53,058 bases of DNA from a virus (taxonomy: Duplodnaviria; Caudoviricetes): positions 1 to 53,058 of the IMG/VR virus record IMGVR_UViG_3300044625_001301; one strand, 5' to 3'. Under the pieces are notes generated by a model. The model worked only from the letters and a program-made list of their open reading frames with translations, did no database searches and had not been told where the DNA came from. Position numbers and translations under genes: made by a program. Shown here piece by piece: positions 3,216-40,776 of this stretch (position 1 is the stretch's first letter; each line of letters begins with the position of its first letter).

Positions 3216-5960
3216 TCACCATTCGGGTTCGACGCCGAAGACTTCGTAGAACTGGGCGAGCAGGTCTTCGAGGATGCGGTGGGAGTCCGCCGCCTTGCCG
3301 GGAGGTGCGTCAGGGTGGGAGGCCATGATCTCGGGCCAGTCGGCCTGGAGCTGACCGCGATAGGTTTGCGCGTTCAGCGCGCGGTAAAACTTCGGGTCCA
3401 TCACCAGATCCGAGACCTTGGGGTGGCGGGCCACCGAGAAGTCCCAGTTGGCCACGATCTCCCGGCGCTTGACCTGCTCGGCGACCTGGTCCTCGCTGGC
3501 GGTCCGGCTGCTGCCGTAGGAGGACGGCCCGACCTCGAACTTGCTCAGCGGTCTGGTCTCTGACTCCTGACCCTTGCGGGTCCTCTTGCGGCGGGAGGCA
3601 CCGACCTGCTTGGGGGTGTTGGAGCGCATGCTATCGGACTCCACCGGGCGCTGCCGGTTGCGCGGAATCTCGGACGGCTCGGGGACCCCAGGGGGCAGCT
3701 CCGGGCCGACCCCGCCCGAGGGCGGGCTGCCGACCGGAGGGGTGGCGTGGGGTCCGTTGATGTCGCCCAGGCTGGCGGTGGCGTAGTACCCGGCGGAGGG
3801 GTTCCCCGGTCCGGGTGCCGCCGGACCGTCGGCGGACAGTGCGGTGATGTTGGGGCCGTGCGCGGGACCCTCGATCATCGCGCCGTTGGGTCCGGCCCCG
3901 ATCTGGACGACGTTGCCCTCCTCGTCGAACAGACCCTCCTGGGCCATCGCCTGCTCGGGTCCGGGAGGCTCGGAGTCTGGCCCCTGGGGACCCATCATCA
4001 TCCCGCCGGGGGGCTGCGGGGCACCGCCCATCATCGGGTCTCCACCACCGGGGGCGGGCTGACCGCCTCCCATCGGGGCCATCCCGGCACCGGCCATCTG
4101 CTGCTCCATCATGGCCTTCTGCATCTCGATCTGCTCGGCCTGCAGCTCGGCCTGGGCCTCACCGGCGATGGCCTGGGCCTCGCCCAGTTCGGTCTGGGTC
4201 TTACCCTGACGCAGCTGCAGTGTCGACATGAGGTGCTGGGCCAGCTCCGGCGGGTAGGGCAGGTTCTGGGCGTCGCACAGATCCTGCACTTTTTTCATCG
4301 CCTGCGCGGTGGCCATCAGCTTGGCCACCGACTCCTCGGCCTGGCGCTCAAGCTCCTGATCGAACTCCATGTCGATGTTGACCGCCAGGGTCTTGTCACT
4401 GACGGGGACGCCCATCGCCTTGAGCTGGGAGATGAACGCCCGCTCCTGGGCCTCGTCGCGGAGGTTCAGGGTCGAGAACTTGATCTCGGGAATCAACAGC
4501 TTGGGTACCTTGCGGATGTACTCCTCGCCGGTGTCGGGGTCGGTCTCGACGATCTCCCGGTAGATCGGGACCCTCTGACCACCCTTGAGGTCATAGTCGT
4601 AGTGGCCCTGGGCCTCGGCGATCACCTCGGCGCGCTTGACGATGTGGCGGCGCAACGAGTTCTGGAAGCCGACCATCATCTGGGTCACAAACTCGCGGTT
4701 CAGCGCCGAGGACGCATACGCCCCTCCGGTACCGCCGGAGATCAGGGCCTCGCCGATCCCCCAGGCCTGCAACAGCTTGGACTGGACCCGGTCGAAGTCG
4801 CCGTCCAGGTTGGGCACGCTCTCGCGCCCGAACACATTTTCGACCTTCAGGCCGAAATTATGGACCATCAGCCGGAAGTCGGCGGCCAGCGCGGCCTGCA
4901 GATCGTCGCGGGCGTCGTCGAGTTCGCCCTGATCCGGTATCCACGGCTCGCCGTCGCCCATGTCCTCGATGCCCAAGGTGGCCAGCACCAGCGGGCTGTA
5001 CAGCCGGTCGGCGACCGCGTCCTGCGCGGCCATCAGCGATTCCTCGGTCATCAGGGTGCGGAAGGAGCGCAGCAGGTGCGGTGTCCCGCGCTTGGCCCAG
5101 GGGGTCGAGCGGTTGACGATCCGGCTGATCAGCGCGTCGGAGATGTCCAGGCCGTCGTTCTGGGCGGCGGCCTGAATGATCTCCGGGTAGTAGCGGATCA
5201 GGTCCTGGTATTCCTGGTTGCGCTGCAACCGCTCCGAGGGGGTCTCGTCGGTGGTACCGATCCCGGCACCGCCGTCGGGTCCCTGCCGGAGGTTGTCGAC
5301 CAGATCCTTGACCAGGAGCTGGACCCGGTCGCGCTGGACGAACAGCGAGCGCGACACCTTGAGCATGTCGGGGTTCAGGATTTCTTCGCTCGACCACACC
5401 CCGAGGGATTCATTGAAGTGTGCCAGGGAAGTGACCTCGCCGACCGTGAAGTATTCCCGGCCCAGCTGGTCGGGCAGGAACTCCATGTAGTTCAATTCGC
5501 CCAGGAACATGTCCTCGTAAAATTTCTTGATCAGCGGGTCTTTGCTGTCAAACTCCAGACCGACCACCGGGAATTTGCTGTAGATGTCGATCAGGAGAGG
5601 CACCAGGTCGTGGGTGGAGTAGAACAGCCGCGACCACCGGCGGATGTCGCGTAGCTCGTCTTCGTCGTCGACGTTGAACGGGATGCCCTTGTCGGCCAGG
5701 CTGCCCAACGGCTGCCTGACCTTGGGAAGGGCTATCTGCATGTTGGTGCCCTGGAAGGCGGTGAACTGGCGTCCCCGGTAGTTGCCGAGTCGGCTGCGGT
5801 TCATGCTGGCGATCAGGCTGCGGTTGTTCACCGACTCCTTCATCGCCATCGCCTCGGTGCGGGCCTGGGTCGGGCTGTAGGGCATCGACGCGCCCATCTT
5901 GCGGAGCTTGGACACCTCGTTGGACCAGTTCGATCCGCCCTGGTGGAGGAAGCTAGTCAC
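3216..5960 (-). CDS. Portal protein with long Pro/Gly-rich C-terminal extension
   Basis: 914 aa; portal-like helical core (LVPLLIDIYSKFP; RGTPHLLRSFRTL; LLQAWGIGEALISG...YASSA); located in the head-gene region. Confidence 0.75.
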   Translation of the reverse strand: MTSFLHQGGSNWSNEVSKLRKMGASMPYSPTQARTEAMAMKESVNNRSLIASMNRSRLGNYRGRQFTAFQGTNMQIALPKVRQPLGSLADKGIPFNVDDEDELRDIRRWSRLFYSTHDLVPLLIDIYSKFPVVGLEFDSKDPLIKKFYEDMFLGELNYMEFLPDQLGREYFTVGEVTSLAHFNESLGVWSSEEILNPDMLKVSRSLFVQRDRVQLLVKDLVDNLRQGPDGGAGIGTTDETPSERLQRNQEYQDLIRYYPEIIQAAAQNDGLDISDALISRIVNRSTPWAKRGTPHLLRSFRTLMTEESLMAAQDAVADRLYSPLVLATLGIEDMGDGEPWIPDQGELDDARDDLQAALAADFRLMVHNFGLKVENVFGRESVPNLDGDFDRVQSKLLQAWGIGEALISGGTGGAYASSALNREFVTQMMVGFQNSLRRHIVKRAEVIAEAQGHYDYDLKGGQRVPIYREIVETDPDTGEEYIRKVPKLLIPEIKFSTLNLRDEAQERAFISQLKAMGVPVSDKTLAVNIDMEFDQELERQAEESVAKLMATAQAMKKVQDLCDAQNLPYPPELAQHLMSTLQLRQGKTQTELGEAQAIAGEAQAELQAEQIEMQKAMMEQQMAGAGMAPMGGGQPAPGGGDPMMGGAPQPPGGMMMGPQGPDSEPPGPEQAMAQEGLFDEEGNVVQIGAGPNGAMIEGPAHGPNITALSADGPAAPGPGNPSAGYYATASLGDINGPHATPPVGSPPSGGVGPELPPGVPEPSEIPRNRQRPVESDSMRSNTPKQVGASRRKRTRKGQESETRPLSKFEVGPSSYGSSRTASEDQVAEQVKRREIVANWDFSVARHPKVSDLVMDPKFYRALNAQTYRGQLQADWPEIMASHPDAPPGKAADSHRILEDLLAQFYEVFGVEPEW

Positions 5961-9300: not shown

Positions 9301-10686
9301 GGCACGGCGGCGGGCTACACGCGGCGGCTCCTGCTCAGGGTCGCCGCCAGCCCCGCCGAAAAAATCGTCACCACCACCCTGCGGTGCTCCCTGCTCAGGC
9401 ATCGGCGGACCGGACATGCCGGGGTCGCCGCCCTGGCCCTGCTCGACCTCTTCGAGCAGCAGCTGCTCGATGGTGCCCTCGGGCAGACCGAGCAGCGAGT
9501 CGATGACCTCCGGCGGGACCGGGGCCGAGCCGCTGGCGTCGTCCTGGGGGATCTCCTGCATCATCTCCGGGGGCAGCGGAGGGGCTTCCTGCGGGACGGT
9601 GAAGGACTCCCCGCCCGATTCCGGAGCAGCATCGCCACCCACCTGGTCGCCCATACCGCCGCCGAAGTCGCCGCCTCCGGAACCGCTGTCGTCGCTGCCG
9701 CCCTTGTCGCTCTCAGAGTCTTCCGAGTCGTCGTCCTCAGAGTCGTCGTCAGAGTCCTCAGAGTCGTCGCTGCCGCCGAAATCGCCGCCCTTGTCCTTGG
9801 TGGGAGCATCATCGCTGTCACTTTCGGATTCCGACGACTCGGAGTCGTCGCTGTCGTCATCGTCGTCGCTGTCGTCGCAGTCCTCGGCGGCCCGGATGAT
9901 CATCGACTGCAGGAGCCGGTAGTCGGCGTCGTGGATGCCGGTGCTGGCGTAGCGATCCAGGGTGTCCAGGGAGGCCACCCGCATCCCGTTGGAGCGGGCG
10001 AAGTCGGTGTAGATGTCGGCGACCAGACGGGCGGCTTCCTTCTTGTCGTGGTCTTCGACCTGATAGCCGCCGTTCTCGTGGTCGGGGCGGTAGGTCTTGC
10101 CCTTCCAGGAGTGCTGGTCATCCAGTTCTCTGTCCCGACCCGTGTCGGGATCAGCCTCACCGGCCTGGCGGCGGCGGGCGTGCCGGTCGGAGCCGGAGTC
10201 CCCGCCGGGGGTGAAGTCGTTGCCGCTGACCTTCTCGGGGCCGTCCTGGTCGACCGAGTCTTTCCAGCCCTCGAAGTCACCCTTGGGGATCAGGTTGCCC
10301 GACGACGGGTGGTAGGTCTCGTCGAGGTCTTGGTTCTTGGGCGGGCCGTCGCCGGAGGGCATCGAGCCGAACCCGGCCTCGTCGTGGCTCAGAGCCACCT
10401 TGTAGGGGTGGGCGACCTTCCAGTCCTGCTTCATCGCGTTCTGGATGCGGCGCATGGTGCCGGTGTTGGGGAAGATGTACGGCTCGACGGCGGCCCGGAT
10501 GTCGTGCTTGCTGTAGTGCCAGCGGTCACCGAACTCGTCGATCCCGGTCGCGCCCAGCAGGAAGCGCCCGAACTGGGCGCGGACCACGTCGATCGCGGCC
10601 TCCATGTGGCGGGCTGCGGTCTTCGCCGCCAGTCGTGGCTCGTGCTGCGCGGCCTCATCAGATTCGAACAGACCAAAGTCGGACAT
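6358..10686 (-). CDS. Very large (1442 aa) acidic/low-complexity head-associated protein with several Zn-ribbon motifs
   Basis: Long ORF; D/S/E-rich tracts; CSGC..CSKC, CSC..CSC, CTC..C..C motifs; many [RK]xA linker motifs; preceded by late-promoter motif. Confidence 0.8.
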   Translation of the reverse strand: MSDFGLFESDEAAQHEPRLAAKTAARHMEAAIDVVRAQFGRFLLGATGIDEFGDRWHYSKHDIRAAVEPYIFPNTGTMRRIQNAMKQDWKVAHPYKVALSHDEAGFGSMPSGDGPPKNQDLDETYHPSSGNLIPKGDFEGWKDSVDQDGPEKVSGNDFTPGGDSGSDRHARRRQAGEADPDTGRDRELDDQHSWKGKTYRPDHENGGYQVEDHDKKEAARLVADIYTDFARSNGMRVASLDTLDRYASTGIHDADYRLLQSMIIRAAEDCDDSDDDDDSDDSESSESESDSDDAPTKDKGGDFGGSDDSEDSDDDSEDDDSEDSESDKGGSDDSGSGGGDFGGGMGDQVGGDAAPESGGESFTVPQEAPPLPPEMMQEIPQDDASGSAPVPPEVIDSLLGLPEGTIEQLLLEEVEQGQGGDPGMSGPPMPEQGAPQGGGDDFFGGAGGDPEQEPPRVARRRAAAYDFPACSGCGSKSTKQTGNPAYGQSKEFKCSKCDHEFKGKAKSAARSFWAAEGEQEQESEGGGGGEQAAPAQDPAAAMGGGDPAAMGQMMPPPGSQAVAPPQPPMPMENQPAEDALLDTAGQAITQMIDRETQEYQQIIGPLSQALQAVQFAQQVEQAEHPMDVTPPEGSVNVDPSQAPGGAGNPQQQLARLIRKAKKTTVLASAAHLIARTYGVSERMLREAMSRRQYEHVAEAFRILPPQALQTPEVRAAARHIGEMFGADNSLFNHDVWMDSVVGPRMAATGKDRYQDKAYSQSRDRGRDEHKRNDLADAQAEDEQNHWEDDPDYRKMYDYRKMYNREGSRGRLPFDQARAAGFRTASDPRDREWDAWASGRDRGRDEHGVRDLAEGLAEYEEDPYQITHRGDGSLGDHLYGDYPDKAYHEDYVREHYPEPSRYTVGGRTAGETWKNTPTMDAFEHPKAGQTPEITDNMAINDLPQPTFKGLPKPKKNSRRTALDLGTKVRRWMDKQTEMGLNTGGDPMAEKYLQTHKVGPRGQEEVHQAIGVPEHPFVEEPPNPKNNPARAVNPVTKKGDRQKLGSRISKFINEHGGYHTRDDDDPEHVFTNPRNGEKYMVQHQDGTLFKPGDMLTNFRGDQDKFLGISKYPEGNSEGKISVNDNYGPVYYPKNYDAEIVPYTGGWDPDDSQDPMDPRLIGAGRRDATWGEWEPTKKASFFTRKVPGWRWDDHLNGYLAKEAKPFSCSCGQKVAAPSYKTCSCGKIWNVYAIGDTHHLASDSAEVFIAREIPVRDNVIMANKKLAARDAADCEACRDMAWQSAHENAFDLAKSQGMGHDEAVEHADRVAEKDSIYNLDGVKCSHDLDREEDESAHYAKIAKGDGGCTCWEGYERVPNTEPCASGSCRKKTSAKTHRELVAEIERLADWTKYDGEDPVAKAYGKPKPPSTSVAKPPQDWAKRKPAGDPSKKGGTWTPPSIPRKKK
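8281..8316. repeat. Perfect 18-bp tandem duplication (DYRKMY x2)
   Basis: GTACATCTTGCGGTAGTC occurs twice in tandem, in frame. Confidence 0.9.
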
Positions 10687-10764: not shown

Positions 10765-10992
10765 GAAAACCCGGTGCAGGGTCGGCAGCAGGGTCAGGTA
10801 CTCCCCGGCGCTGAGGATCTCGGGCTGCCCGGTGCTGCGGTCGACGAGGACCGTCAGGTTGGCGTACTCGTCGAGGTCGGTGTCGCGGAAACCGATCACG
10901 TAGCCGGTCTCGCTCTCCAGCACCCCGGCGGGGTTCACCGGCTGCTCCAGAGTCTGTCGGGCGATCTGGATCGCCTCGTCGATGTCGATCAA
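10762..10992 (-). CDS. Putative immunity protein (Imm35/YrhB-like)
   Basis: 76 aa acidic protein, IDEAIQIARQ..E.ETGYVI..VLVDRSTG pattern; start overlaps the stop of the upstream toxin-tipped ORF. Confidence 0.6.
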   Translation of the reverse strand: MIDIDEAIQIARQTLEQPVNPAGVLESETGYVIGFRDTDLDEYANLTVLVDRSTGQPEILSAGEYLTLLPTLHRVF

Positions 10993-13900
10993 CGGTCCCC
11001 CTGTGGGTCGTGTGGGGCGAAGATCGGGGTCCCGTCGGCGGTCCCCCGGTCGACCAGGAACTTGGCGGTCTCGGGTGCCAGCGTTTTGTCGTCGGTGCGC
11101 AGGAACCGCAGCGGCGACTCGATCTTGTTGCGTTCCACGATTCTAGCAGCCGGGTCGGTGGTCAGGATGTTTTTCCGGCGGCTGCGGCCATCGAGCGCGG
11201 TGTAGTCGACCCGGTCCCGGTAGTGGTCCCCGCTGCTGCCGCGTATCTGGTGGTCGAGGTAGTGGACCTGGCCGCTGTCACCGACTCGGGCGTTGAAGAC
11301 GTGGCGGACGAACTCGTTGGCGTGGGGGTGGGGGTAGGAGGCCATGATCACGGCCCGACCTCCGGGACCCCAGCTGGCGATCTGGCGGGTCATGTGGTCC
11401 CAGTGGTGGGGGCCGTCGTCGCCCTCGGCGAAGTGGTCCTGGGGGTCGATCCAGGCCGCCGGGACACCGTTGGCATCGCGCCACCAGGCCGCCAGCTCGT
11501 GGTCCTTGGGGATGTAGTCGTTGGTGTGTCCGCCCTTGGGGGAGTGGTACCGCTGCTGGGCCTCGACGTTGAGGCCGTGGTAGTTGGCGTCGGCGGCCAG
11601 CGCGCAACGTTGGCAGTTGATCATGTAGGCCCGCTGGCTGGCCAAATCGGGGTCCCCGGTCCCGGCCTTGAAGCGGGGGTTGATCAGTTCGCCGCCGATG
11701 TGCCGGTCGGGGTCGGGGATGCGGGAGAAGTGCTCCAGGGAGGGGACCGCGAACTTGCGGCTGTGCTGAAGCTCGACCCTGAGCAGGTCCCGGTGGCGCA
11801 GCAGCCGGAGGTGGGAGTCGAGGTCGTTGGGGTTGGCCAGGACCCGCTCGGCGGCCTGGTGGTAGGCACCGGCCATCCGCTTGAGCGCGCCGTAGTGGGT
11901 CTCGGCGGCCCAGGCCGGGGTGAGGTCGATGTGGTGGGCGTTGTGGTGGCCGCGCAGCGACTGCGGACCCTCGGGGTGCGCGCCGTGCAGTGCGTAGTGG
12001 TCGCGGCGGGCCAGGACCTCCTGGGCGTGGGCGATCGCCTCGTCCGGCGCAGCGGCCAGCCGGGCGTTGCGCTGCTCGTAGCTCCGCTGCATCTGGGTGC
12101 GCTTGTCAAAGATACGGGTGAGCCGATCCAAGTCGGCAGACTGATCCATGCGGAAGGGGTGCGACCGGTTGTGCAGCAACAACGCCCCGGCGGCGACCTC
12201 CTTGGGGTCGTAGCCGTGCCGCTCCACCGCCCTCGGGCCGGTCTGATAACGCCTGCCCTTCTCCGGGTAGTCAAGCATGTCTCCGGCCTGCTCCTGGCCC
12301 ATGCTGAAGCCTTTATGCGCCGCCGGGTAGCGCTCCTTGAGGAACTTCTCGATGTTCTTCCAGCTTCGCTCCGGTGGGAACGAGGCCGTGGGGTGCAGGG
12401 CGTCTCGGTTCTGCCCGGCCCATTCGCGAAACTCTTTTGCGATCCTGCTGGTGACTTCTTCGGGATCGAACCCCGCCGTCCGAAGGAATACAGCAGCCTG
12501 GCGAGTGCGCTGCTCGTAGGTGCGCTGCATCTGGTACCGCTTCTGGGCGATGTCGGTGAGGCGCTCGACGTCGCGCTGCTCCATGTCGCCCCGGAGCGGG
12601 TTGGAGCGGTTGTGCAGCAGCAGCATTGAGGCGGCGACCTCGGCGGGGTCGTAGCCATGCTTGGAGACCGCCTCAGGTCCGGTCTCATAGGGGGTCAGGT
12701 CGGCGGTGCCGTGCTGCTGGTAGGGCATCGGCCCGAGACCGTCGAGGGGCCTGGCGGCCTCCTCCAGGCCCATCTCGTGACCCTTGTGGGCCGCCGGGTA
12801 GCGGTCCTTGAGGAACGCCTCGATGTTGGGCCAGTGGCTGACCGGACCCTCGTCCGGGTTGCCGTGGTCAAGCCAGCCCTTCACCTCCGGGGCACCGGCC
12901 TTGTAGCGGGCGGCGAAGGTGTCGGTCCACCAGTCGTGGAACTGCTTGTCCAGCTTGTTGACCAGATCCTGGTTGAGGGCGGCGGTCCGCTCCGCGCGCA
13001 GCCTGTCGTAGTAATCCTTCAGGTGCGCGCTGGCAGCGCCGTGCTCCTCGGGGGGCAGCTTGCGGACGATCCGGGCGCGGGGGGAGACCAGTCGGGGGAA
13101 GTCCTCATCGTTCTCGGTGGGTCGGAACTTGCCGTCATCCCGCAAAATGTTGTTCCAGATCCACGGCCCCTCGTCGAGCGGCTCCAGCTCGTAGACGTTC
13201 TTGTGGTATTTCGTCGCCGGTGCCGGGTGGTTGTACATCCAGACCCAGTCGGCGTGGTTGGGTGCCCCAATGGAGTTCTCGTAGTAGTCGATCCGGTTCT
13301 GGTCGCCTCGGGCGCGGACCGACTCCAGGATGTCTCCGGGCTGATGCTCGTGGTCGCTGCCGTGGTAGAAGCTGCCCTGTTCGGGGATGTCGTCGGTCTT
13401 CTTCTTCCGGTCCATGACCAGGTAGTCGTAGGCGTCCCGTGACGGCATCGCCAGGCGGGCCTGCCGGGGGTGCAGGCCGGTGATGTCGCCGAACACCGAA
13501 GCCGCCTCCGGCCCCAGGTGCTGGTGGTAGAGCGCGTGCAGCAGTTGCTGGAAGCGGGGGCCGTGGCCGTCCCGGTGGTCGGTGTTGGTCAAGACGTGGG
13601 CGGTCTCGTGCAGCAGGGTCAGCGTGTTGGTGTGCTGCCCGGCCAGCGCGATCTTGTTGCCGTCGGTGTAGGCCTGCCCGGACCCCGGCTCCCGCAGCCC
13701 CCAGTCGTTGGGTTCCACCCGGATGCCGCCGCCGTGGCCGTGGCTGCGCAGGATGTCGTTGACGAACCGCTCGGCCTCGGCGGAATGTTCACGCTGCAGC
13801 CGCCGCACGTCGGGCTGGCCGTACTGGTCGTAGTAGCCGTGCTGGTGGGCCTGGGCGACGTTGGCGTTGGGGACGTGGAACGTCTGGCCGCCGAACCCGG

Positions 13901-14387
13901 CCCGCTCCATCACCTGCTCGGCCACCGATACCCGGCCCTCGTCGTCAAGGGAGTGCCCGTCGGCGGCGGCCAGCCTGCGCAAGTCCTCGGTCACGTCGGC
14001 CTCGATCGCGGCGGTGTGGGAGCCATCCTCCAAAATGGCGTCCCAGGCCTGTGGGGGCCGGGTCGGCGACGGGGTGGCTTTGGCCCATGCCTTGCCCGCG
14101 TCCGTCTGGTATTCAGGCCGGTCGTGCATGGGACGGCCCGCCGCTTCCCACATCGCGGTGCCCACACCCTTGCGGCGGTGCTTTTCCTCCACCTCGATGT
14201 TGGCGACATACGGGGTGTCGTCGTCTAGCCGGTCGATCTCTATCCACCCGGCGTGCTCGCCGTTGATGGTGGCCTTCACCATGTCACCTTCGTTGGTGAT
14301 CTCCAGGCCGGGGATGTGCTTGGCGGCAGCAGTCTTGCCTGTGACGTCGTCGTCCAGGCCGTCCAACCCCCACAGCCCCCAACTCAT
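10989..14387 (-). CDS. Multi-domain polyvalent protein: GNAT, HExxH metallopeptidase, Arr-like ADP-ribosyltransferase fold, two internal repeats, C-terminal Tox-PL-like papain-fold domain
   Basis: VANIEVEEKHRRKGVGTAMW (GNAT motif A); LLHETAH...HGPRF (zincin); FYHGSD...VWMY...VYELEP; NCQRC...HVFNA...YLD (Cys-His-Asp). Confidence 0.8.
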   Translation of the reverse strand: MSWGLWGLDGLDDDVTGKTAAAKHIPGLEITNEGDMVKATINGEHAGWIEIDRLDDDTPYVANIEVEEKHRRKGVGTAMWEAAGRPMHDRPEYQTDAGKAWAKATPSPTRPPQAWDAILEDGSHTAAIEADVTEDLRRLAAADGHSLDDEGRVSVAEQVMERAGFGGQTFHVPNANVAQAHQHGYYDQYGQPDVRRLQREHSAEAERFVNDILRSHGHGGGIRVEPNDWGLREPGSGQAYTDGNKIALAGQHTNTLTLLHETAHVLTNTDHRDGHGPRFQQLLHALYHQHLGPEAASVFGDITGLHPRQARLAMPSRDAYDYLVMDRKKKTDDIPEQGSFYHGSDHEHQPGDILESVRARGDQNRIDYYENSIGAPNHADWVWMYNHPAPATKYHKNVYELEPLDEGPWIWNNILRDDGKFRPTENDEDFPRLVSPRARIVRKLPPEEHGAASAHLKDYYDRLRAERTAALNQDLVNKLDKQFHDWWTDTFAARYKAGAPEVKGWLDHGNPDEGPVSHWPNIEAFLKDRYPAAHKGHEMGLEEAARPLDGLGPMPYQQHGTADLTPYETGPEAVSKHGYDPAEVAASMLLLHNRSNPLRGDMEQRDVERLTDIAQKRYQMQRTYEQRTRQAAVFLRTAGFDPEEVTSRIAKEFREWAGQNRDALHPTASFPPERSWKNIEKFLKERYPAAHKGFSMGQEQAGDMLDYPEKGRRYQTGPRAVERHGYDPKEVAAGALLLHNRSHPFRMDQSADLDRLTRIFDKRTQMQRSYEQRNARLAAAPDEAIAHAQEVLARRDHYALHGAHPEGPQSLRGHHNAHHIDLTPAWAAETHYGALKRMAGAYHQAAERVLANPNDLDSHLRLLRHRDLLRVELQHSRKFAVPSLEHFSRIPDPDRHIGGELINPRFKAGTGDPDLASQRAYMINCQRCALAADANYHGLNVEAQQRYHSPKGGHTNDYIPKDHELAAWWRDANGVPAAWIDPQDHFAEGDDGPHHWDHMTRQIASWGPGGRAVIMASYPHPHANEFVRHVFNARVGDSGQVHYLDHQIRGSSGDHYRDRVDYTALDGRSRRKNILTTDPAARIVERNKIESPLRFLRTDDKTLAPETAKFLVDRGTADGTPIFAPHDPQGDR

Positions 14388-14563
14388 GTGTCAACCCACT
14401 CTTTGATCACGGCCTCAGCCCGGTCGCGGGTCATCAGCCAGCCGTCGGGGGATTGGACGGCGGCGATCCGGCCCGCGCGGGCCTCGCCCTGGGCGAACTC
14501 CAAAGTCTTGCGGGCGCGGTGGGCGACCTCCACCAGGGAGGCGTGGGTGCGGGGGTTGATCAC
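14384..14563 (-). CDS. Hypothetical protein (about 59 aa)
   Basis: GTG start overlaps upstream stop; own stop overlaps downstream start. Confidence 0.55.
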   Translation of the reverse strand: MINPRTHASLVEVAHRARKTLEFAQGEARAGRIAAVQSPDGWLMTRDRAEAVIKEWVDT

Positions 14564-14796
14564 GACAGCAGACCCTTGAGCTTGTCCGGGGAGAACCCAC
14601 CCCAGTGCTGCTCCCCGTCGCCGACCACCACCACCGGGGCCTGCTGGTAGCCCAGCCCGGTCACGTAGGCGTGGGCGTCGGGGTCGACCGTGACATCTAT
14701 GACACGGTGCTCGATGCCCAGCCGATCCAACTGCTTCTTGGTCATGGTGCACTGCGGGCAGTTGGGCTTGGTGTAGACGGTGACGGCGGCGGTCAT
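14560..14796 (-). CDS. nrdH: NrdH-like glutaredoxin (in-frame C-terminal module with possible own start)
   Basis: MTAAVTVYTKPNCPQCTMTKKQLD...GYQQAPVV...WGGFSPDKL; purine-rich AGAAAAAGG upstream of the ATG. Confidence 0.85.
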   Translation of the reverse strand: MTAAVTVYTKPNCPQCTMTKKQLDRLGIEHRVIDVTVDPDAHAYVTGLGYQQAPVVVVGDGEQHWGGFSPDKLKGLLS

Positions 14797-17643
14797 GATA
14801 TGGGCCTTTTTCTGGTTGATGTTTGAATTAACAATTTCTCCCCGAACATTCGGGCCGTGATAACCCCACTCATGCAAGTCATTGTTAGTCCAGACATGCT
14901 TGGCGGGAACTGTTGACCGCACTATCGGCCAATCCTCATCAGGATTTTCACTCTGCACGGCGTGTTCGCGTGCATACGGCAGGCTAGTGGTTATCCAGTC
15001 TCCAGTGTTTATGTCGGTTTTACCCGAAGGAATTGCTCGATAAATCACAACAGGATGATCGGGATTTCCCCTAGCCTCATTTAACTGACGCTGAATGTTT
15101 TTGATGCCGTAATCCATCGAGTCATACCATTCAGGGTGCTCATAAATGTCGTCCCCCCACATCTGGTTTAAGTCATGAAACGGAGCACCGTGGTCTGGGC
15201 CACCAGGACGATGCTGTCCTTGATAATCTTCACTGGGCATGGCCAGCCGGGCGGCGGTGTGGGGTTCCTTCCAGGGGTGCGAAAGCTCCTCGGCGATGTG
15301 GGCACCATCAGCAACCCAGCCATCGCTGCCGGTGCCGTTCCAGGGCAGCACATTGCTGCTCGGCTCAACCCGGTAGATGTAGCCGCGCCCGTTGTCGCCC
15401 TTCTTGGGAGTCAAACCGGCCCATCCCACCGCCTCGGTCACGCTCGGTGACAACCACACATAGTTGCGGCGATGCTCGGTGCCGTCCTTCTCATACAGGT
15501 TGTTGCCCCACGGCGAATCGTGGCCGGGAGTGAGGTGGGTGCCGACCGGCAGCTTGGTGGGTGAGTAGTGATACCACGGCCCGTCGTGTGGCTCGGGGCG
15601 CTCGTCTGGGTTGTACTCGTCCTCGTCATAGAAGCCGTCGTACACGTCAAACTCGCTAGGCATGGCCAGCCGGGGGGCGATGCGAGGCCCTTTCTTCCAT
15701 TCGGCGTCAAACTCGGTTGTCGGCTCGTCGTAAGAGAACCTTTTGCTGTACTGGTCCAACGGCTCGATGTGAGGAACTTTCGCACGGGGGTCAAACTGGC
15801 TCATCGTCCAATCCACGACGTGATCCCGCCCCTGATGGTTGATGACCGGGGCGTAGTGATCAGCAGGGGCGTAGACACCGTCATCGACAAGTTCGTCAGT
15901 CTCCCAGTGCCCCGGATCACTCTCGCTGTGCTGCAAGTCTTCTCGCGCCGGATTGGGGAACGCTGAAACTGTGGGAAGAAAGAATTGGTGCAGCCTTGGG
16001 TTAAATGAAGGGTGCAGCCCTTCCATAAAAGAAAGAGAGTTGCTCAAACAATCCCCATACCCCCGTTCCGGCTCTTCTGAATATCCGTTCTGAGCAAAGT
16101 CGGAAATGGCTTTGTTCAGATTGGGCATGGCCAGCCGGGAGGCGGTGTGGGAGGCGGTGTGATGGAACGCTGCTGCGGGGATGGGGTCAGGGGAGTAGAA
16201 CGACCGACCTTCCATCTCGTCGTTCCACTCGTTCTCGGGGTCAGGCAGGGCGAGGGCGTCATGGTTGAAGGGCAGCACGACGTGCCCGTCATTTTCTTCG
16301 TCCCAGTTCATGGAGCCGTACTCCTGCTGATCCCGCTCGTCCAGTTCGTTGGCGTACTGGTCGGCATGGCCGGGATGATCCCAAAAATAATTACCTGGGG
16401 TGGCCCCGTCATGGTGCCACATCGCTTCGCCTTTGGTGTAGTCCAGGCCATGCTGTCGGATGGAGTCCACATTGCGGCGTGGCGTGACGTGGTAGTAAAT
16501 GGGCATGGCCAGCCGGGAGGAAGTGATGTAATCGCCCTGCGCCCAGGACGGCTGCCGGTCATAAGTGCTGGCGATGCTGGCAGGATTGTCTGCCAGGTGC
16601 TGCTGGATCGCCGGATGCAGTGGAGTGCCACCCCACCGCTCCAAGTTGCGGGTGCTCTCCCGCAGGAAACGCACCGGCAGGTGGGTCAACCCCGCCTCGC
16701 GGGCAGCGGCCAGTCGGTGGTTACCGTCGGCCACCAAACCCAGTTCGCCGTCGGTTTCCAGGGTGATCGGCATTTGCACGCCGTGCTCGCGGATGTGGCG
16801 CACCAGGTCGGGGTAATGGTCGGAGTCCGTGGCGGCCACCGGGTCGTACAGGTTGTGTGGTTCTAGGTGTTCGATGGGGAATTGCAGCGGGGCGGGCATG
16901 GCCAGCCGGGCAGCGGTGTGGGGGCCGCGCTCCACCTCGTAATCCTCCAAGGTGTCGATGTCGGGGTCCTGGCGGTTCCACACCGGCGGGTTCCAGCCCA
17001 CCGACCGGCCCCAGGCCCGGCCCAGCGGGGTCTGGTCGGTGGAGTGCCCCAGGTCGGGGTCGACGTTGTTGCGGTGCCAGTCCAGCATCGCGGTGCCGAT
17101 GCCCTGGCGGCGGTACTCGGGGGCCACCTTGATCATGTCGATCTTGCCCTGCGCCGGGCGCAGGTAGCCGATCAGGTGCTCGCCGTCGTAGGCGTGCGTC
17201 CAACCCCGGTGCTCGCGGAAGTGCAGGTTCTCCGGCAGGTCGCCGTTGGCCCCTCCCAGCCGGGCGGCGGTGCGGGGGCCGATCCGGTGCCGTTCGATGT
17301 GCTGATGCGCCGCTGCGACCTCATCGGGGTCAGGTTCGTCGTACCAGTCCAGTTCTTGACCTAGCTCCGGCTCCATGTCGCCATGCACGCCGTAGTAGGG
17401 CAGCGGGTGCGCCCCGGCGGAATCATAGGCGTGGGTGTCGTCGTGGGCAAAGAAGTGGGCCGCCGGGAGGTGCGCCGTGCTCAGCGTCCCGATTCCGAGA
17501 TGGGGAAATCTTTCCTTGAGTGCTTGGGCGTATTCCAGGCAGCTGCCGCCCTGCCAGCGATCCCACTCGTCGGTGTTGTGTCCGGCCTCCGAAAGATCAT
17601 TTAGGCTGCCCATCCGCCAGCCGTAGCCCCACAGGTCGCTCAT
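14560..17643 (-). CDS. Eight-module polyprotein: papain-like, GNAT, ParB-like, ART-like, papain/transglutaminase-like, Arr-like ART, ART-like, NrdH glutaredoxin
   Basis: Modules separated by (H/R)TAARLAMP-type linkers. Motifs: GSCLEYA..H..D; VAPEYRRQGIG; DGNHRLAAA; YHVT..IRQHGL; CLSNS..H..DWTMSQF; WYHYS..VWLS..IYRVEP; IYRA..GDWITTS..EWGY; CPQC. Confidence 0.85.
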   Translation of the reverse strand: MSDLWGYGWRMGSLNDLSEAGHNTDEWDRWQGGSCLEYAQALKERFPHLGIGTLSTAHLPAAHFFAHDDTHAYDSAGAHPLPYYGVHGDMEPELGQELDWYDEPDPDEVAAAHQHIERHRIGPRTAARLGGANGDLPENLHFREHRGWTHAYDGEHLIGYLRPAQGKIDMIKVAPEYRRQGIGTAMLDWHRNNVDPDLGHSTDQTPLGRAWGRSVGWNPPVWNRQDPDIDTLEDYEVERGPHTAARLAMPAPLQFPIEHLEPHNLYDPVAATDSDHYPDLVRHIREHGVQMPITLETDGELGLVADGNHRLAAAREAGLTHLPVRFLRESTRNLERWGGTPLHPAIQQHLADNPASIASTYDRQPSWAQGDYITSSRLAMPIYYHVTPRRNVDSIRQHGLDYTKGEAMWHHDGATPGNYFWDHPGHADQYANELDERDQQEYGSMNWDEENDGHVVLPFNHDALALPDPENEWNDEMEGRSFYSPDPIPAAAFHHTASHTASRLAMPNLNKAISDFAQNGYSEEPERGYGDCLSNSLSFMEGLHPSFNPRLHQFFLPTVSAFPNPAREDLQHSESDPGHWETDELVDDGVYAPADHYAPVINHQGRDHVVDWTMSQFDPRAKVPHIEPLDQYSKRFSYDEPTTEFDAEWKKGPRIAPRLAMPSEFDVYDGFYDEDEYNPDERPEPHDGPWYHYSPTKLPVGTHLTPGHDSPWGNNLYEKDGTEHRRNYVWLSPSVTEAVGWAGLTPKKGDNGRGYIYRVEPSSNVLPWNGTGSDGWVADGAHIAEELSHPWKEPHTAARLAMPSEDYQGQHRPGGPDHGAPFHDLNQMWGDDIYEHPEWYDSMDYGIKNIQRQLNEARGNPDHPVVIYRAIPSGKTDINTGDWITTSLPYAREHAVQSENPDEDWPIVRSTVPAKHVWTNNDLHEWGYHGPNVRGEIVNSNINQKKAHIMTAAVTVYTKPNCPQCTMTKKQLDRLGIEHRVIDVTVDPDAHAYVTGLGYQQAPVVVVGDGEQHWGGFSPDKLKGLLS
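15236..16909 (-). repeat. Five identical 15-nt linker repeats CCGGCTGGCCATGCC (encoding RLAMP)
   Basis: Plus-strand GGCATGGCCAGCCGG at 15236, 15659, 16124, 16502, 16895; degenerate copies near 17257 and 13443. Confidence 0.95.
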
Positions 17644-18572: not shown

Positions 18573-20234
18573 TCAGCTGTCAAAGAGCAGATGGTCGTCG
18601 AAATCCCGAATCGAGGCGACCCTCGGTCCGGGATTGAACGTCGGGGTGGACTCCTGCCCGGTCATCGCCGAGCCGTTCCAGACCGCCTTCATCACCGCGC
18701 CGGGGAGGTTGGTAGCCACCGTCCCGGTCTGCATCTCCGGTCCGATGTCGGAGATCCCGGCACCGCCCTCGCCGACCGAGGTCTGCGGTGCGGAAGTCCG
18801 GCGGTGCTTGCCGGGTCCGTTCTGGGGGAATCCCGGACCGCCGCCTTCCATCAGCTGGTCTTCCCACATCCCGTGGTCGTTCTCGTGCAGCCGATGGCGT
18901 CCCGAGTAGCTGCCGTCCAGCGAAAGGTCGGCGAAATCAGGGGTCGGCTGCATGTCCCGGTAGGGGTCGTCGGCCATCGTGTTGCGCCACGGCTCGTCGG
19001 GGTCGACGTCGTGGGCACCGGCCAGCCGGGAGTAGCGGGCAGGGTCGTCGTCGTCGAATTCGGTGTAGCGCAGGTCGCGCTCCAGACCCCGGCGGTCGGT
19101 CGGCTCGGTGTGGTAGTCGTGCTGGCGGAGGTGGTCCTCGTACTCGGCGATGTCCTCGGTCCCGAAGCCGGGCCGGTCATAGCCCGGCCCGAGCGGGTAC
19201 CCGGACACCCGGTGGGAGCCGAGGTGGTTGGGGTTGGCGTAGGGGTTGGGTCCGGGACCGGTGCGGCCCTGCATCCAGGCGAACTCGGCTCCATCGCTGT
19301 GGATGGGGTGCTGTCCGCAGGTCGGGCAGACATCCAGGTCCGGGTCCTGCTCGAAGTCGATGCCCTGCCCGCAGTTCAGGCACTCATCGTCGGGGGCCTC
19401 CATGCCGCCCCAAGAGACTGCGGTCCGGCGAGCCGAACGGTCGCGCCCACCCTTGGTCCGGTCGGCCTTGGGCGGCAGGTATTCGGTGTACTGCTGTCCG
19501 GGACCCTCGGGGGTGCCCTCCAGCCCGCCCATCGGCGAGACCTTCAGGTGCTGCTGGGTGACCGGGTCATAGCCGTACAGGTGGCCGGTCTCATCGGCGT
19601 GGTAGGGGTGTTCTTCGTTGACCAGTCCCCGCATGTCGAACCGTCGGGGGCCTTCCTGGTCGGCGGACATCCCGTCCCAGTCGTCGGGGTAGTAGGGCTT
19701 TGACTGACCGCCGCTGTACTCCTGCCCCGGCTCCAGGGGGGTGCCCTCCAGTCCGCCCATCGGCGAGACCTTCAGGTACTGCTTGGTGTTGGGGTCGTGC
19801 TTGTAGCGGTACCCGCCGACGTTGATCTCGTCGCCTCCGGGCGGGAACATGTTGAACCGGCGGGGGCCTTCCTGGTCCTCGGACAGACCGTCCGCGCCGT
19901 CGTCGTAGTAGCCAGCCTCAACGTCGAAGTCGGCCACCCGGCGGCTGCCCTTGAACGCGCGGGCACCGTCGTCGAGGAAGTCGATGAGCAGCCGGTGCTT
20001 GGCCGACATCAGCTCGCGTCGGGCGGTCTCGGCCTCGTCGGTCAGCGCCAGGTGCGCGGCGGTGAACCCGGATCGGGCCTGGGTGAGCACCTTGTCGGTG
20101 GCGGCGATCCGGGCCTCGATGGACTCCGGGGTGCCGTCGAACCAGCGGCCACGGTCCTGACGCCAGGGTGCGGCGACCCTCTCCAGGGCGCGCATCGCTG
20201 CGGCCAGTCTCAGGTTCTCCGATGAACGGAACAT
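18573..20234 (-). CDS. Probable virion-associated protein with internal duplication and CxxC Zn ribbon
   Basis: 553 aa; DQEGPRRF...LKVSPMGGLEGTP twice; CLNC/CPTC; [RK]xA linkers; RBS GAGGAG. Confidence 0.8.
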   Translation of the reverse strand: MFRSSENLRLAAAMRALERVAAPWRQDRGRWFDGTPESIEARIAATDKVLTQARSGFTAAHLALTDEAETARRELMSAKHRLLIDFLDDGARAFKGSRRVADFDVEAGYYDDGADGLSEDQEGPRRFNMFPPGGDEINVGGYRYKHDPNTKQYLKVSPMGGLEGTPLEPGQEYSGGQSKPYYPDDWDGMSADQEGPRRFDMRGLVNEEHPYHADETGHLYGYDPVTQQHLKVSPMGGLEGTPEGPGQQYTEYLPPKADRTKGGRDRSARRTAVSWGGMEAPDDECLNCGQGIDFEQDPDLDVCPTCGQHPIHSDGAEFAWMQGRTGPGPNPYANPNHLGSHRVSGYPLGPGYDRPGFGTEDIAEYEDHLRQHDYHTEPTDRRGLERDLRYTEFDDDDPARYSRLAGAHDVDPDEPWRNTMADDPYRDMQPTPDFADLSLDGSYSGRHRLHENDHGMWEDQLMEGGGPGFPQNGPGKHRRTSAPQTSVGEGGAGISDIGPEMQTGTVATNLPGAVMKAVWNGSAMTGQESTPTFNPGPRVASIRDFDDHLLFDS

Positions 20235-37819: not shown

Positions 37820-40012
37820 TCATCCCCGGTTCCCGCGTGTCCGGTCCCCGGTGTAGGTGGTCCGGGAGCCGAAGGCGTTGCGCCGGGCGCGGGCCAGCTT
37901 GTTGTTGTGCAGGACCTGCTTGTTGCGGTCGGCGCGCAGCCCGCGTCGCTCGGATTTCTCGGCCTCCTCGGCGAGGTACTTCTGCAGGGGGTCGGTGTAC
38001 TGGTTCTTGTCGTTCTCGTGGTAGAGCAGACGCTCCTGCTCGCGCCCCGAGCGCAGGCCGTCGATCTTGGTGGAGCCGATGCTGGTCCGGTTGATCGCCT
38101 GCCACCAGCGGTCCAGGGACTCGTGCAGCAGCTCGGTGGTCACCACCATCACGGCGTCGGCCAGGTCCTTGGTCTGGATCGGCCCCACCTCCTGGCGATC
38201 GACTTTTCCGTTTTTCTCCTGAAGGAATTTCAATTCCAATTCCAGCAGCGACTGGCTGTCCTCGGCGTAAGTGTCGCGATAGGAATGCACCCACCCCAGA
38301 TTCAGCGCCGATTTAAATTTCTCAAAACGATCCTGATTTTCTTTGACGGTAAATGTTTTCTCAATGATTCTGATGCTGGGAAATGCGCGTTTCTGATGAG
38401 CGATGAATCCGGCGGAGTTGAATTGGTCGTAGCTCATCTTGACCATGCTGGGGTAGCGCATCAGGTAGTCGTCCAGCTCCTCACCCACCTGCACGTAGTC
38501 AATGGTGTGGTTGGGAAAATTCTCCGGCTTCCACACCTTCAGGACGTCGATCACGACGTGCGGCCAGGAAATGCCGTGCTCGTCGGGAGGTGCCTCCTCC
38601 AGGTGTCCGATGCAGAACCCGAAATTGGCGTTGGTGCGGGACGGGTCGGCGTGCGCGCGGTAGGCGATCGACAATTTACCCTGATATTGCTCGACCAGCG
38701 GGTCACGCCAATTCGGTGGGGCGAACATGGAGTCCACCATCACCTCATTCAAATAAGCGTTCTGGACGGTGGCGAACTGGGCACCGCGCTCCACCGCAAA
38801 TTTATCGGGGTTGCGCTGCTGACGTCGGAATTGCACCCTCTCGTCGGGGGAGCCGTCGGGCTTCGGCTCGAACTGCACCGGGTTGTTCCAGCGCGGGAAG
38901 GTCCGGGTGCGGTTGGGCCGGACCAGGATCTCCCGGCTGCGTTCCCAGTCCCGGTACGGCTCCCAGGACGGCAGCTGGATGATCAGGAAAGTCGGCTCGG
39001 CGAACGCTTCGGTGATGTCGTCCGGCTCGACGTCGATGTCCTGGGCGGCGGCCTCCTCCAGGAAGCTGGAGGTCTTGAGTTTGCCCTCGCGGGAGTTGTA
39101 CTCATCCATCGTGACCCTGCCCTGCTGGTACAAATCGTAAAATTTGCCGATCTTCGAGTAGGGGCTGGAAGCGATGTATGTCATTGCGCTGGAACCGAAC
39201 TGGTCCAGGGAGGGCTGGAATGCGTCGTAGATCTCTTCGCCTGTCTTCATCGAGCCGGTGCCCGAAATCATGTGCGCCATCTCGTCGTAGGCGTTCATGA
39301 AGCCGGTGCCACCACGGCCACTGGAGGACACCGATGAGGATGCCTTGCAGTAGATGGTGGCGATCTCCCGGTCGGTGGAGATCCCGGAGAGCCGGTTCTC
39401 CTCGATCATCTGCTCGTCTCCAGCAGTGCGGATGTAGAACTCGGTGTACTTGTCCCCGACGATGTGCTCGCGAAGGTACTCGCAGTTGAGAACCGTGTTG
39501 CGGATGTCGCGAAACTGTCGTGTCACCGCCTGGGTGAGACTTGTTGCGACAACCATGATTTCGGCAACCTGACCGGGAACCTGATTGAAGTGCTGCTGCC
39601 AGGAACCGAGGCTGTAGAGGTAGGCGATCCGCTCGCACCCCAGGATGCCACCCAGGATGCCTTTGGAGGCGCGTCGTCCCATCACCATCTGAACATGCGG
39701 AAAGTGGGTGAAGCCATGCGTTTTCAGATACTCGATGCGATCCCAGATGTCGGGCTGCACGCCGAAAGGCTTGTGGTGGTTCTTGAATCCCTCGGCCCAC
39801 TGACCGATCACGTCGCGATCGTAGTCGGTCATCGTCTCGGTCTCCAGATAGATAAGCTTGAGCAGCGTCATCTGCCGTGGGTATAACCTCTTGCCGCAGA
39901 ACGATTTATGGGTGGCGAAGTCGACAATGGACCCCCAGGGTGGTCCGGTGGCGACCCCGGACTTGAACTGTCCGATCGGGTCGAAGTTGTTGACCAGGAC
40001 GGGTTTGGTCAC
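37820..40012 (-). CDS. terL: Terminase large subunit
   Basis: YPRQ Q-motif, Walker A MGRRASKG, VATSLTQA, Walker B AYDE, coupling motif SSP, nuclease residues HADP, YDQFN, KDLADA. Confidence 0.9.
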   Translation of the reverse strand: MTKPVLVNNFDPIGQFKSGVATGPPWGSIVDFATHKSFCGKRLYPRQMTLLKLIYLETETMTDYDRDVIGQWAEGFKNHHKPFGVQPDIWDRIEYLKTHGFTHFPHVQMVMGRRASKGILGGILGCERIAYLYSLGSWQQHFNQVPGQVAEIMVVATSLTQAVTRQFRDIRNTVLNCEYLREHIVGDKYTEFYIRTAGDEQMIEENRLSGISTDREIATIYCKASSSVSSSGRGGTGFMNAYDEMAHMISGTGSMKTGEEIYDAFQPSLDQFGSSAMTYIASSPYSKIGKFYDLYQQGRVTMDEYNSREGKLKTSSFLEEAAAQDIDVEPDDITEAFAEPTFLIIQLPSWEPYRDWERSREILVRPNRTRTFPRWNNPVQFEPKPDGSPDERVQFRRQQRNPDKFAVERGAQFATVQNAYLNEVMVDSMFAPPNWRDPLVEQYQGKLSIAYRAHADPSRTNANFGFCIGHLEEAPPDEHGISWPHVVIDVLKVWKPENFPNHTIDYVQVGEELDDYLMRYPSMVKMSYDQFNSAGFIAHQKRAFPSIRIIEKTFTVKENQDRFEKFKSALNLGWVHSYRDTYAEDSQSLLELELKFLQEKNGKVDRQEVGPIQTKDLADAVMVVTTELLHESLDRWWQAINRTSIGSTKIDGLRSGREQERLLYHENDKNQYTDPLQKYLAEEAEKSERRGLRADRNKQVLHNNKLARARRNAFGSRTTYTGDRTRGNRG

Positions 40013-40776
40013 CGGCTGTCGCCGTTCAGGTAAGCTCGCAGACCAGGGCCGTGCGGCGTTTCATATTCATCACCCAGGTGGGGGTCGTTGGTGATGTGCA
40101 CGGGCACCTTGCCCCATCCCAGCGCCTGTGCCGCCAGCGCCCGGTGGTGGCCGTCTTCGATCACGGCGTGTTCCGGCCCTGCTCCAATGTAAATTGGCTC
40201 CAGCATGCCGTGCTCGCTGAGATGACCCATCAGCTTGTCCATGTTGTCAAGGTTCCGCCATTCGTTGTCGTGGCGGGCGTAGCTCACGACTTCGTCGGGG
40301 TGAAGGTGAGCATGAACAGCAGCCGAAACGTCCGGCTCGTCCCAATCTAGGTGAGGGTTGAAAACACCACCTGCGGTGTGCAGCGGCCACGGCCCGTCGT
40401 AGGCAGCAGTATGGTAGTCCAGGCCATCCCAGGGCTGCCTTTTTCGAGTCGGTGCCGGGGTAGTTGCAGCCCACGCCCTACCGGCATCAGTCTGGAACTC
40501 AGGCAGGTCATGCGGAGGTCGACCGGCGGCCTCCCACATTGCCGTACCGACCCCCTTTCGGCGATGCTGTGGCTCAACCTCAATATTGCCGACGAACGGC
40601 GCATCATCATCGGTGCGGGAGATTTCTATCCAACCGGCAGGTTCTCCGTTGATGTGCGCCCGCACCACATCACCCTCATTGGTGATGGTGAGTCCAGGGA
40701 CATCTCGGGCAGCCTGACGCCAGGGCGACAGCATCGCGTGCTGTTCCCTGGCCGTAACAATCCGCCGTGTCATCAC
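40009..40776 (-). CDS. GNAT + ParB-like two-module protein
   Basis: VGNIEVEPQHRRKGVGTAMW; HGMLEPI...EDGHHRALAA; RQAA/HTAA linkers. Confidence 0.8.
   Translation of the reverse strand: MMTRRIVTAREQHAMLSPWRQAARDVPGLTITNEGDVVRAHINGEPAGWIEISRTDDDAPFVGNIEVEPQHRRKGVGTAMWEAAGRPPHDLPEFQTDAGRAWAATTPAPTRKRQPWDGLDYHTAAYDGPWPLHTAGGVFNPHLDWDEPDVSAAVHAHLHPDEVVSYARHDNEWRNLDNMDKLMGHLSEHGMLEPIYIGAGPEHAVIEDGHHRALAAQALGWGKVPVHITNDPHLGDEYETPHGPGLRAYLNGDSR

Follow-up and report, generated by a model that had tools for sequence, protein, structure and literature searches.

The window analysed here is the whole of a virus record of 53,058 bases from IMG/VR (IMGVR_UViG_3300044625_001301), judged 34% complete. One of its minus-strand genes, named Q1, encodes eight small modules of 80-155 aa fused in a single frame, and five of the junctions between them carry the same short repeat. 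The best explanation for this locus is that Q1 is a polyvalent protein organised as an array of exchangeable cassettes, in which the linkers are exchange joints and also protease sites. Taken as a whole, we regard this explanation as fairly probable. Q1 and its parts, all on the minus strand, are the following.

14560..17643, minus strand: Q1, polyvalent multi-module open reading frame, 1027 aa from the ATG at 17643; the open frame extends to a GTG at 17685.
17608..17643, minus strand: type A N-terminal leader of Q1, MSDLWGYGWRMG, common to 39 of 188 related proteins.
17278..17643, minus strand: M1, YunG-like, with conserved Cys, His and Asp; the family assignment is a lead only.
17251..17274, minus strand: J0, degenerate linker RTAARLGG at the M1/M2 junction.
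16910..17238, minus strand: M2, GNAT acetyltransferase (Pfam 27.8 bits versus a cut-off of 20.7).
16895..16909, minus strand: L1, invariant 15-mer, in HTAARLAMP.
16517..16890, minus strand: M3, ParB-like N-terminal domain.
16502..16516, minus strand: L2, invariant 15-mer, in TSSRLAMP.
16139..16497, minus strand: M4, domain of the ADP-ribosyltransferase (ART) fold, Tpt1/KptA-like.
16124..16138, minus strand: L3, invariant 15-mer, in HTASHTASRLAMP.
15674..16119, minus strand: M5, papain-like Cys-His domain (SseI / PMT-C3-like).
15659..15673, minus strand: L4, invariant 15-mer, in IAPRLAMP.
15251..15654, minus strand: M6, Arr-like ADP-ribosyltransferase.
15236..15250, minus strand: L5, invariant 15-mer, in HTAARLAMP; a sharp compositional fall starts directly after it.
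14815..15231, minus strand: M7, phrog_2579 domain common in phages, weakly ART-like.
14794..14811, minus strand: M7/NrdH junction KKAHIM, AAAAAGG (Shine-Dalgarno-like) plus ATG; right breakpoint of the natural variant X17 (see below).
14563..14796, minus strand: M8, NrdH-redoxin with CPQC, the constant C-terminal module of the family.

The ATG at 17643 is considered the real start of Q1 because relatives begin with MSDLWGYGW. A preliminary description of this DNA, made from its letters alone, had pointed out eight mutually unrelated modules in one frame and an identical in-frame 15-mer at five junctions, and both observations hold. Profile-profile comparison of the eight Q1 modules (hhalign) found no related pair, with all comparisons below 25% probability. 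The repeat CCGGCTGGCCATGCC is present in Q1 as five exact minus-strand copies, all in the same frame and all reading xRLAMP, and the exact shared core of these linkers measures 16-21 nt. When the window was scanned for the 15-mer allowing up to 2 mismatches, 6 matches were obtained versus 0.53 expected, a number reached in 0 of 100 shuffles. The probability of five identical sets of Arg, Leu and Ala codons is about 2e-4 under the codon usage of eleven genes of the window, and the codon identity of the linkers in Q1 therefore goes beyond what the peptide itself requires. The two remaining junctions differ, since M1/M2 carries a degenerate linker and M7/NrdH a different conserved sequence.

The modules also differ in base composition, as had been visible to the preliminary description. 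The G+C content at third codon positions (GC3) is 0.77, 0.97, 0.80, 0.77, 0.63, 0.82, 0.47 and 0.90 for M1 to M8; most other genes in the window lie between 0.82 and 0.91. The contrast between adjacent modules has p<0.05 in six of the seven pairs, and reaches p 8e-10 for M6/M7. At L5, GC3 is 0.72 in the 25 codons before the linker and 0.36 in the 25 codons after it. These differences indicate separate histories for the modules, with steps at the junctions.

A set of 188 related proteins was assembled from protein searches. An exhaustive search gave 4794 matches at E up to 0.001, mostly via M7 or NrdH. The motif R[LT]A[ML][PAS] is present in 71 of the 188 proteins, a count that takes in Q1 and its neighbour Q2 and leaves out two pieces of the window itself; it is absent from the giant M7-bearing polyvalent proteins. 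The conserved inter-module peptide has the consensus (H)TA(A/S)R(L/T)AMP, with TAARLAMP and TA(A/H/S)RTAMP as the main forms and RLGG, RLAA and RLAS as degenerate ones. Among 65 distinct RLAM(P/A/S) contexts, His is found at -4 in 27, Thr at -3 in 40, Ala at -2 in 43, Ala at -1 in 42 and Pro at +4 in 56. Module-sized segments were clustered by BLAST into 30 families, which were then used to annotate all 188 proteins. The 71 linker-bearing proteins display 66 different architectures and 82 distinct ordered pairs of modules. The strict motif occupies the junction in 93 of 126 adjacent pairs that do not involve NrdH, and most of the other 33 have a degenerate form. One upstream context (EVERGPHTAARLAMP) leads into four different modules, and up to six different modules follow one and the same upstream context. 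In high-scoring segment pairs (HSPs) of at least 70% identity between Q1 and its relatives, 37 of the 50 internal ends are found no more than 10 residues away from a junction, although the junction windows cover 14% of Q1 (binomial p 3e-21, a value that overstates the case since HSP ends are not independent). The M2 GNAT module is 99% identical to a module of P0008 that has different neighbours there. The smallest member of the family, P0127 (107 aa), consists of the leader and NrdH alone, and other cargo modules seen in the relatives (P0081, P0046) include a PTS-HPr domain and DUF7251.

Searches with the linker itself were less productive. The bare 15-mer gave at least 116 matches in IMG/VR, with no listed locus having more than one, and this search was uninformative because the matches are single and unrelated. 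Back-translated HTAARLAMP found 0 loci in IMG/VR and 7 in JGI metagenomes, the only relatives among the latter being L125 and L128; 5 loci in species-representative genomes all encode unrelated proteins and were discarded. Back-translated TAxRTAMP found 89 loci in IMG/VR, with 1 relative (L165).

Natural variants of the array were found in lake-water metagenomes. Seven runs contain at least 0.91 of the sampled words of the Q1 stretch, three of which may be the source sample, and seventeen contain 0.30 to 0.39. Variants were read from contigs; depth was not interpreted. A contig from X17 (4987 bases) matches 17272..16122, i.e. GNAT, ParB and M4, with 10 differences in 1151 nt (99% identity). 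At this point 337 foreign bases, one module-sized insert, replace the 1324 nt of M5-M6-M7, and past the insert the match resumes in NrdH (14797..14400, 22 differences in 398). The left breakpoint is located 2 nt past the L3 15-mer and the right one at the NrdH ATG. A contig of X4 connects 16149 with 16910, which gives an in-frame M4-linker-ParB order on the gene strand (one contig, with 55 bases on its shorter side). Seven contig ends in X4 are internal to the locus; four of them fall on L5, L2, J0 and the leader, and three at listed single-base variants. An apparent M6-linker-M4 joint in X4 was set aside, as the contig may fit two linker copies.

Cassette exchange at the linkers is thus well supported, because the breaks in homology to relatives, the steps in GC3 and the breakpoints of a 99%-identical natural variant are all located there. 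An exchangeable effector array with the linker as joint is what the preliminary description had proposed, and its expectation that module number and order would vary across relatives, with breaks at the linker, is matched by the 66 architectures in 71 proteins, the 37 of 50 HSP ends near junctions, the GC3 steps and the X17 contig.

The same description had emphasised the lack of synonymous variation in the linker. This is correct within the present lineage but does not extend beyond it. The relative L125, whose open frame extends over 1197 residues or more, uses six different nucleotide strings for six linkers. Linker codons tend to be homogenised within a lineage, as with the identical 16-nt core in the Q1 lineage, and in the relative G001 the string CGCACCGCCATGCCC is common to both strict linkers. 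The conserved unit is the peptide, with its RTAMP variant and its degenerate forms. That distant relatives use other codons for the same peptide argues for selection acting on the linker peptide, the nucleotide invariance being local. The searches that found L125 and the G001 locus demanded the peptide, and therefore cannot measure non-synonymous change in linkers.

Two observations fit a proteolytic processing site at the linker. Conserved leaders are found at the N-termini of the family, of type A (consensus MSxxLWGYG, n=39) or type B (MxRRIITAREQVExLSPW, n=12 proteins). The pattern R-x-A-(A/M/S...) follows the type A leader in 32 of 39 proteins, at residues 9-23, and R-x-A-x follows the type B leader in 10 of 12, at residues 17-19 in eight of them and at 30 and 43 in the other two. 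R-x-A-x is also found behind the leader of single-module proteins, where a cassette joint is absent. In addition, the linker is predicted to be disordered. In both structure models it is the sole long inter-domain stretch with a predicted local distance difference test score (pLDDT) below 50. In the first model (mean 83.9) this stretch is residues 130-145, PWKEPHTAARLAMPSE, between two confident domains, and in the second (mean 65.5) residues 114-125, a tract ending in HTASHTASRLAMP, with M4 confident and M5 moderate. Proteolytic release is plausible, because the linker appears disordered and the same R-x-A-(A/M) motif closes the N-terminal leaders.

The locus could then function as follows. 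Q1 and Q2 are predicted to be single polypeptides carrying small host-modifying enzymes, with a cargo of an acetyltransferase, a ParB-like domain, three ADP-ribosyltransferase-fold domains and papain-like Cys-His domains, and the Q1 array would be framed by a conserved leader at the N-terminus and a constant NrdH at the C-terminus. New in-frame combinations would be created when co-infecting relatives recombine in the linker codons or next to them, and selection would keep the linker peptide as a protease recognition site. The candidate proteases are the HExxH peptidase of Q2 and a putative phage head-maturation enzyme absent from this fragment; cutting off the leader and parting the modules would let each enzyme reach its own target. 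The array may either be injected after head packaging or simply be produced early in the cell; on gene position alone, virion delivery is plausible. A bolder version of this scheme is that the linker has a dual purpose, with (H/R)-(T/L)-A-(A/M) as a protease recognition peptide at which a head-targeting leader is stripped off, and its codons as the crossover point at which phages trade the enzymes of an injected cocktail. We regard this version as possible but tentative.

Several observations weigh against the cassette array with protease-cleaved linkers. Among the 71 linker-bearing proteins, the HExxH motif is found in Q2 only, and it is absent from both polyvalent open reading frames of G001. 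Pfam, PHROGs and PDB comparisons found no other protease in the 53-kb window, i.e. in 34% of the genome, and no maturation protease is annotated in records of the Cluster C phages, whose portals resemble the one here. Many proteases disfavour proline after methionine. NrdH, the constant partner, acts in nucleotide metabolism and is not expected in a virion or head. The K(K/E)A(R/K)xMTAAVTVYT junction is present in most listed NrdH-bearing proteins, its DNA being a Shine-Dalgarno-like sequence plus ATG, and the NrdH of G001 has its own gene, which overlaps the stop of the array as ATGA (L224 13090-13215); a shift of one or two bases would convert the fused and separate forms into each other. 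With a start signal of its own and a separate gene in G001, NrdH is probably also made alone. Given this signal and the role of NrdH in nucleotide metabolism, the locus need not encode a virion protein and may instead be expressed early inside the cell. Gene conversion by itself could account for the nucleotide identity within the gene. The module families and junction counts rest on BLAST clustering of 188 non-independent proteins, and in the phage collection there were only weak single-module matches and no cultured relative was found. Finally, the accessible part of PMC5512222 describes some polyvalent proteins, N4 vRNAP and TraC1, as delivered uncleaved.

The linker could instead be a flexible spacer and recombination scar, in a protein that works at full length and with a motif kept by exchange and homogenisation. 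The identical 16-nt core of the five Q1 linkers (P about 2e-4), the single string shared by the two strict linkers of G001 and the breakpoints sitting on linkers all fit this possibility, as do the lack of a consistent protease partner among the 71 linker-bearing proteins and, from the accessible text of PMC5512222, the existence of uncleaved polyvalent proteins. A scar does not account so well for a peptide kept with other codons in L125 (six of six different) and in Q2, or for R-x-A-(A/M) behind the leaders of single-module proteins, and RLAMP, RTAMP and RLAA keep a pattern rather than drifting freely. We consider this alternative rather unlikely. If Q1 were a string of once-separate genes, the linker Met could act as an internal start, and nested C-terminal sets of modules would also be made. 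The linker Met is invariant and the modules begin with Met-Pro, the NrdH junction does have a Shine-Dalgarno-like sequence and ATG with a separate NrdH gene in G001, and RNA structure around the five linkers, including their AUG regions, does not exceed that of shuffles (z -0.07 to +1.5). However, internal initiation is improbable because no purine-rich Shine-Dalgarno sequence is found upstream of the linker ATGs. Its expected products are nested multi-module proteins, not single modules, and TAAR-L/T-A before the Met is conserved as a peptide despite codon variation.

Two further alternatives have little in their favour. The linker resembles the 2A peptides of eukaryotic viruses and Pro-dependent arrest peptides, and the chain might separate co-translationally at the linker with no protease: the conserved stretch ends in Ala-Met followed by Pro, and there is no consistently linked protease. 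Such separation is very unlikely, because Ala or Ser replaces Pro in 9 of 65 distinct linkers; the leader junctions end in RTAA without Pro, the known RAGP/RAPP arrest motifs have an Arg-Pro spacing unlike that of the linker, and 2A peptides are not known to act in bacteria. An assembly chimera joined at the repeated 15-mer would agree with the varying composition of the modules, and no single listed contig in four runs spans the whole stretch, with one record fitting two places. The shared core is only 16-21 nt, though, which is shorter than usual assembly word sizes, and seven runs contain at least 0.91 of the sampled words. GNAT, ParB and M4 are adjacent in P0002 and in the X17 contig, M4, M5 and M6 in one X4 contig, M6 and M7 in P0004, P0016 and P0003, and M7 and NrdH in P0037 and P0041. 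As each adjacency is seen independently, a chimera is barely credible.

The modules themselves belong to folds that the preliminary description had broadly guessed right (GNAT, ParB, ART and papain), as judged from Pfam, PHROG, PDB and structure-model comparisons. M3 scores 19.6 bits with Pfam ParB_N, below the cut-off of 26.3, and matches several ParB-like PHROGs at E 1e-10 to 1e-5. The M4 model aligns with Tpt1/KptA (Z 7.9, root-mean-square deviation 2.6, 78 aligned residues), and its top 23 matches are all ART-fold chains. For M5, in the low-confidence half of its model, the structure matches are SseI (Foldseek probability 0.98) and PMT-C3 (Z 6.1). M6 matches Arr rifampin ADP-ribosyltransferase (Foldseek E 8e-6, Z 10.3, 109 aligned, 25% identity); the Pfam Arr-ms score, with a cut-off of 25, is 13.4 bits in Q1 and 24.1 in the relative P0047. 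M7 gives only weak ART-like structure matches (Z 5.7 and 4.7), and its nearest Atlas cluster has 984 members, 89% of them viral. PHROGs names phrog_2579 a 'ParB C-terminal domain'. The model is weakly ART-like instead, the conserved YRA, TTS and EWGY stretches fit an ART of the R-S-E type, and the PHROGs label for this family is probably wrong. M8 scores 51.9 bits with Pfam (cut-off 22.9) and matches solved NrdH structures in PDB at E 1e-20. Pfam does not recognise M1, M4, M5 and M7, nor their stand-alone relatives.

The source of the window is a lake-water phage fragment from a Cluster-C-like actinophage. Its portal (3216..5960) is 75% identical to the portals of Cluster C mycobacteriophages, genus Bixzunavirus, a similarity that makes Mycobacteriales the probable hosts. 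On the minus strand the gene order is Q1, Q2, a 1442-aa phrog_2922 protein and the portal, which is thus the third gene downstream of Q1, and the large terminase gene is also in the window. The same order is kept in the relative G001. In phage Cali, a phrog_2922 homologue and the portal are present, and four tRNA genes occupy the place of Q1 and Q2. No DNA near-identical to the locus was found in the phage collection, and no close relatives were found by protein search of IMG/VR. The neighbouring array and a further multi-module gene have the following features.

10989..14387, minus strand: Q2, second polyvalent open reading frame, 1132 aa.
13596..13610, minus strand: HETAH zinc-peptidase motif of Q2, about 50 aa upstream of the Q2 linker.
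13444..13458, minus strand: sixth copy of the 15-mer, in the Q2 linker RQARLAMP, with two synonymous differences (CGC CTG GCG).
40009..40776, minus strand: two-module gene of 255 aa, GNAT plus ParB-like, with type B leader MTRRIVTAREQHAMLSPWRQAA and an HTAA junction.

Q2 consists of a leader, a GNAT domain, an SprT-like HExxH peptidase (18 bits with Pfam, below the cut-off), the linker, an Arr-like module, two 160-aa repeats and a papain-fold Gln_amidase. The repeats (residues 465-628 and 643-797) are a tandem duplication of a domain of about 160 aa (…RYPAAHKG…GYDP.EVAA..LLLHNRS.P…), which recurs in many relatives and has no Pfam match. The GNAT plus ParB-like gene adjoins the large terminase, has a GC3 of 0.66 versus 0.82-0.91 for most genes, and found no match in the phage collection. 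Two large neighbour proteins (6358-10686 and 18573-20234, both minus strand) have RLAA/KTAA-type motifs near their N-termini (MSDFGLFESDEAAQHEPRLAAKTAARHME and MFRSSENLRLAAAM), which might be sites of the same kind as the linker or occur by chance in an Ala-rich proteome. Downstream of the portal, a large phrog_2940 protein (1-2718, minus strand) starts with MATVHTAY and, around residue 880, weakly resembles LysM/endolysin sequences. Pfam, PHROGs and PDB comparisons of the neighbouring large proteins found no protease or MuF domain.

Polyvalent proteins are considered one of the chief means for phages and plasmids to introduce enzymes into newly entered hosts. How they are cut and how they diversify so fast have been conjectural since 2017. 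The Q1 family offers a short candidate processing motif, and cassette exchange is recorded in its natural variants, whose sequences agree to 99% up to a linker and differ beyond it. The reshuffling of viral anti-host toolkits can be followed here in readable form. The family also defines about 30 small portable phage domains, several of which (M1, M7 and others) are widespread and uncharacterised; their presence in the arrays marks them as probable host-directed effectors.

Q1 is a member of the polyvalent class described by Iyer, Burroughs, Anand, de Souza and Aravind in 2017 (PMC5512222), as far as the class is defined in the accessible part of that paper. Such proteins have 2 to 15 distinct domains per polypeptide, and Q1 has eight; they are encoded by phages beside virion and packaging genes, here the portal and the large terminase of the window; and their typical repertoire is represented by the GNAT, Arr-like ART and ParB-like domains of Q1 and the SprT-like HExxH domain of Q2. 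Likewise, the published proteins unite unrelated ART, GNAT, ParB-like, zincin peptidase and papain-like domains in one polypeptide, beside portal or head genes and with extensive mosaicism, and were proposed to be cut into functional units by a resident metallopeptidase. Unlike them, as far as described there, the Q1 modules are small (80-155 aa), lie between a conserved leader and NrdH, and have between them one conserved peptide, located where exchange takes place. The words 'linker' and 'glutaredoxin' have 0 occurrences in the accessible text of PMC5512222, as have 'NrdH' and 'actinophage' in that of PMC9503650. In the literature outside subscription journals and supplements, no description was found of the inter-module peptide, its match to exchange points, the leaders or the NrdH anchor.

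The arrangement of leader and linkers resembles that of head proteins of T4-like and giant phages. T4 internal head proteins have short propeptides and internal sites with one protease motif. The head-maturation protease motifs of these phages end in Glu, and the linker motif is R-x-A-(A/M). The T4 and SPN3US substrates are mostly trimmed at the N-terminus, whereas Q1 would be split into serial enzyme modules. The substrates of the SPN3US protease, from the available text of PMC10052503, similarly have short N-terminal propeptides and one consensus motif that is cut repeatedly, and they are packed in the head and enter the host. In the MuF-fused head-packaged effectors (PMC9503650, in the part accessible), ART and other enzymes are likewise attached to a constant part and encoded near terminase-portal genes. 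Those fusions have one effector, unlike Q1, whose constant part is a short leader plus NrdH with many effectors per protein. By analogy, the nearest functional counterparts of the linker would be the VENN motif of CdiA and the PxxxxDPxGL motif of Rhs proteins, short motifs that bound swappable toxin modules, and proteolytic toxin release has been reported for CdiA-CT (PMC3150448; PMC9424206, accessible parts). As there, a conserved short peptide in the Q1 family stands at the border of a variable module and marks the swaps. The CdiA and Rhs systems are bacterial and have a single variable C-terminal toxin with an immunity gene, whereas the Q1 family has up to seven serial junctions in a phage protein with a constant C-terminal NrdH. 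If the linker did serve the dual purpose considered above, the array would be a plug-and-play injected enzyme cocktail, and its linker a serial phage counterpart of the VENN/Rhs toxin-swapping motifs.

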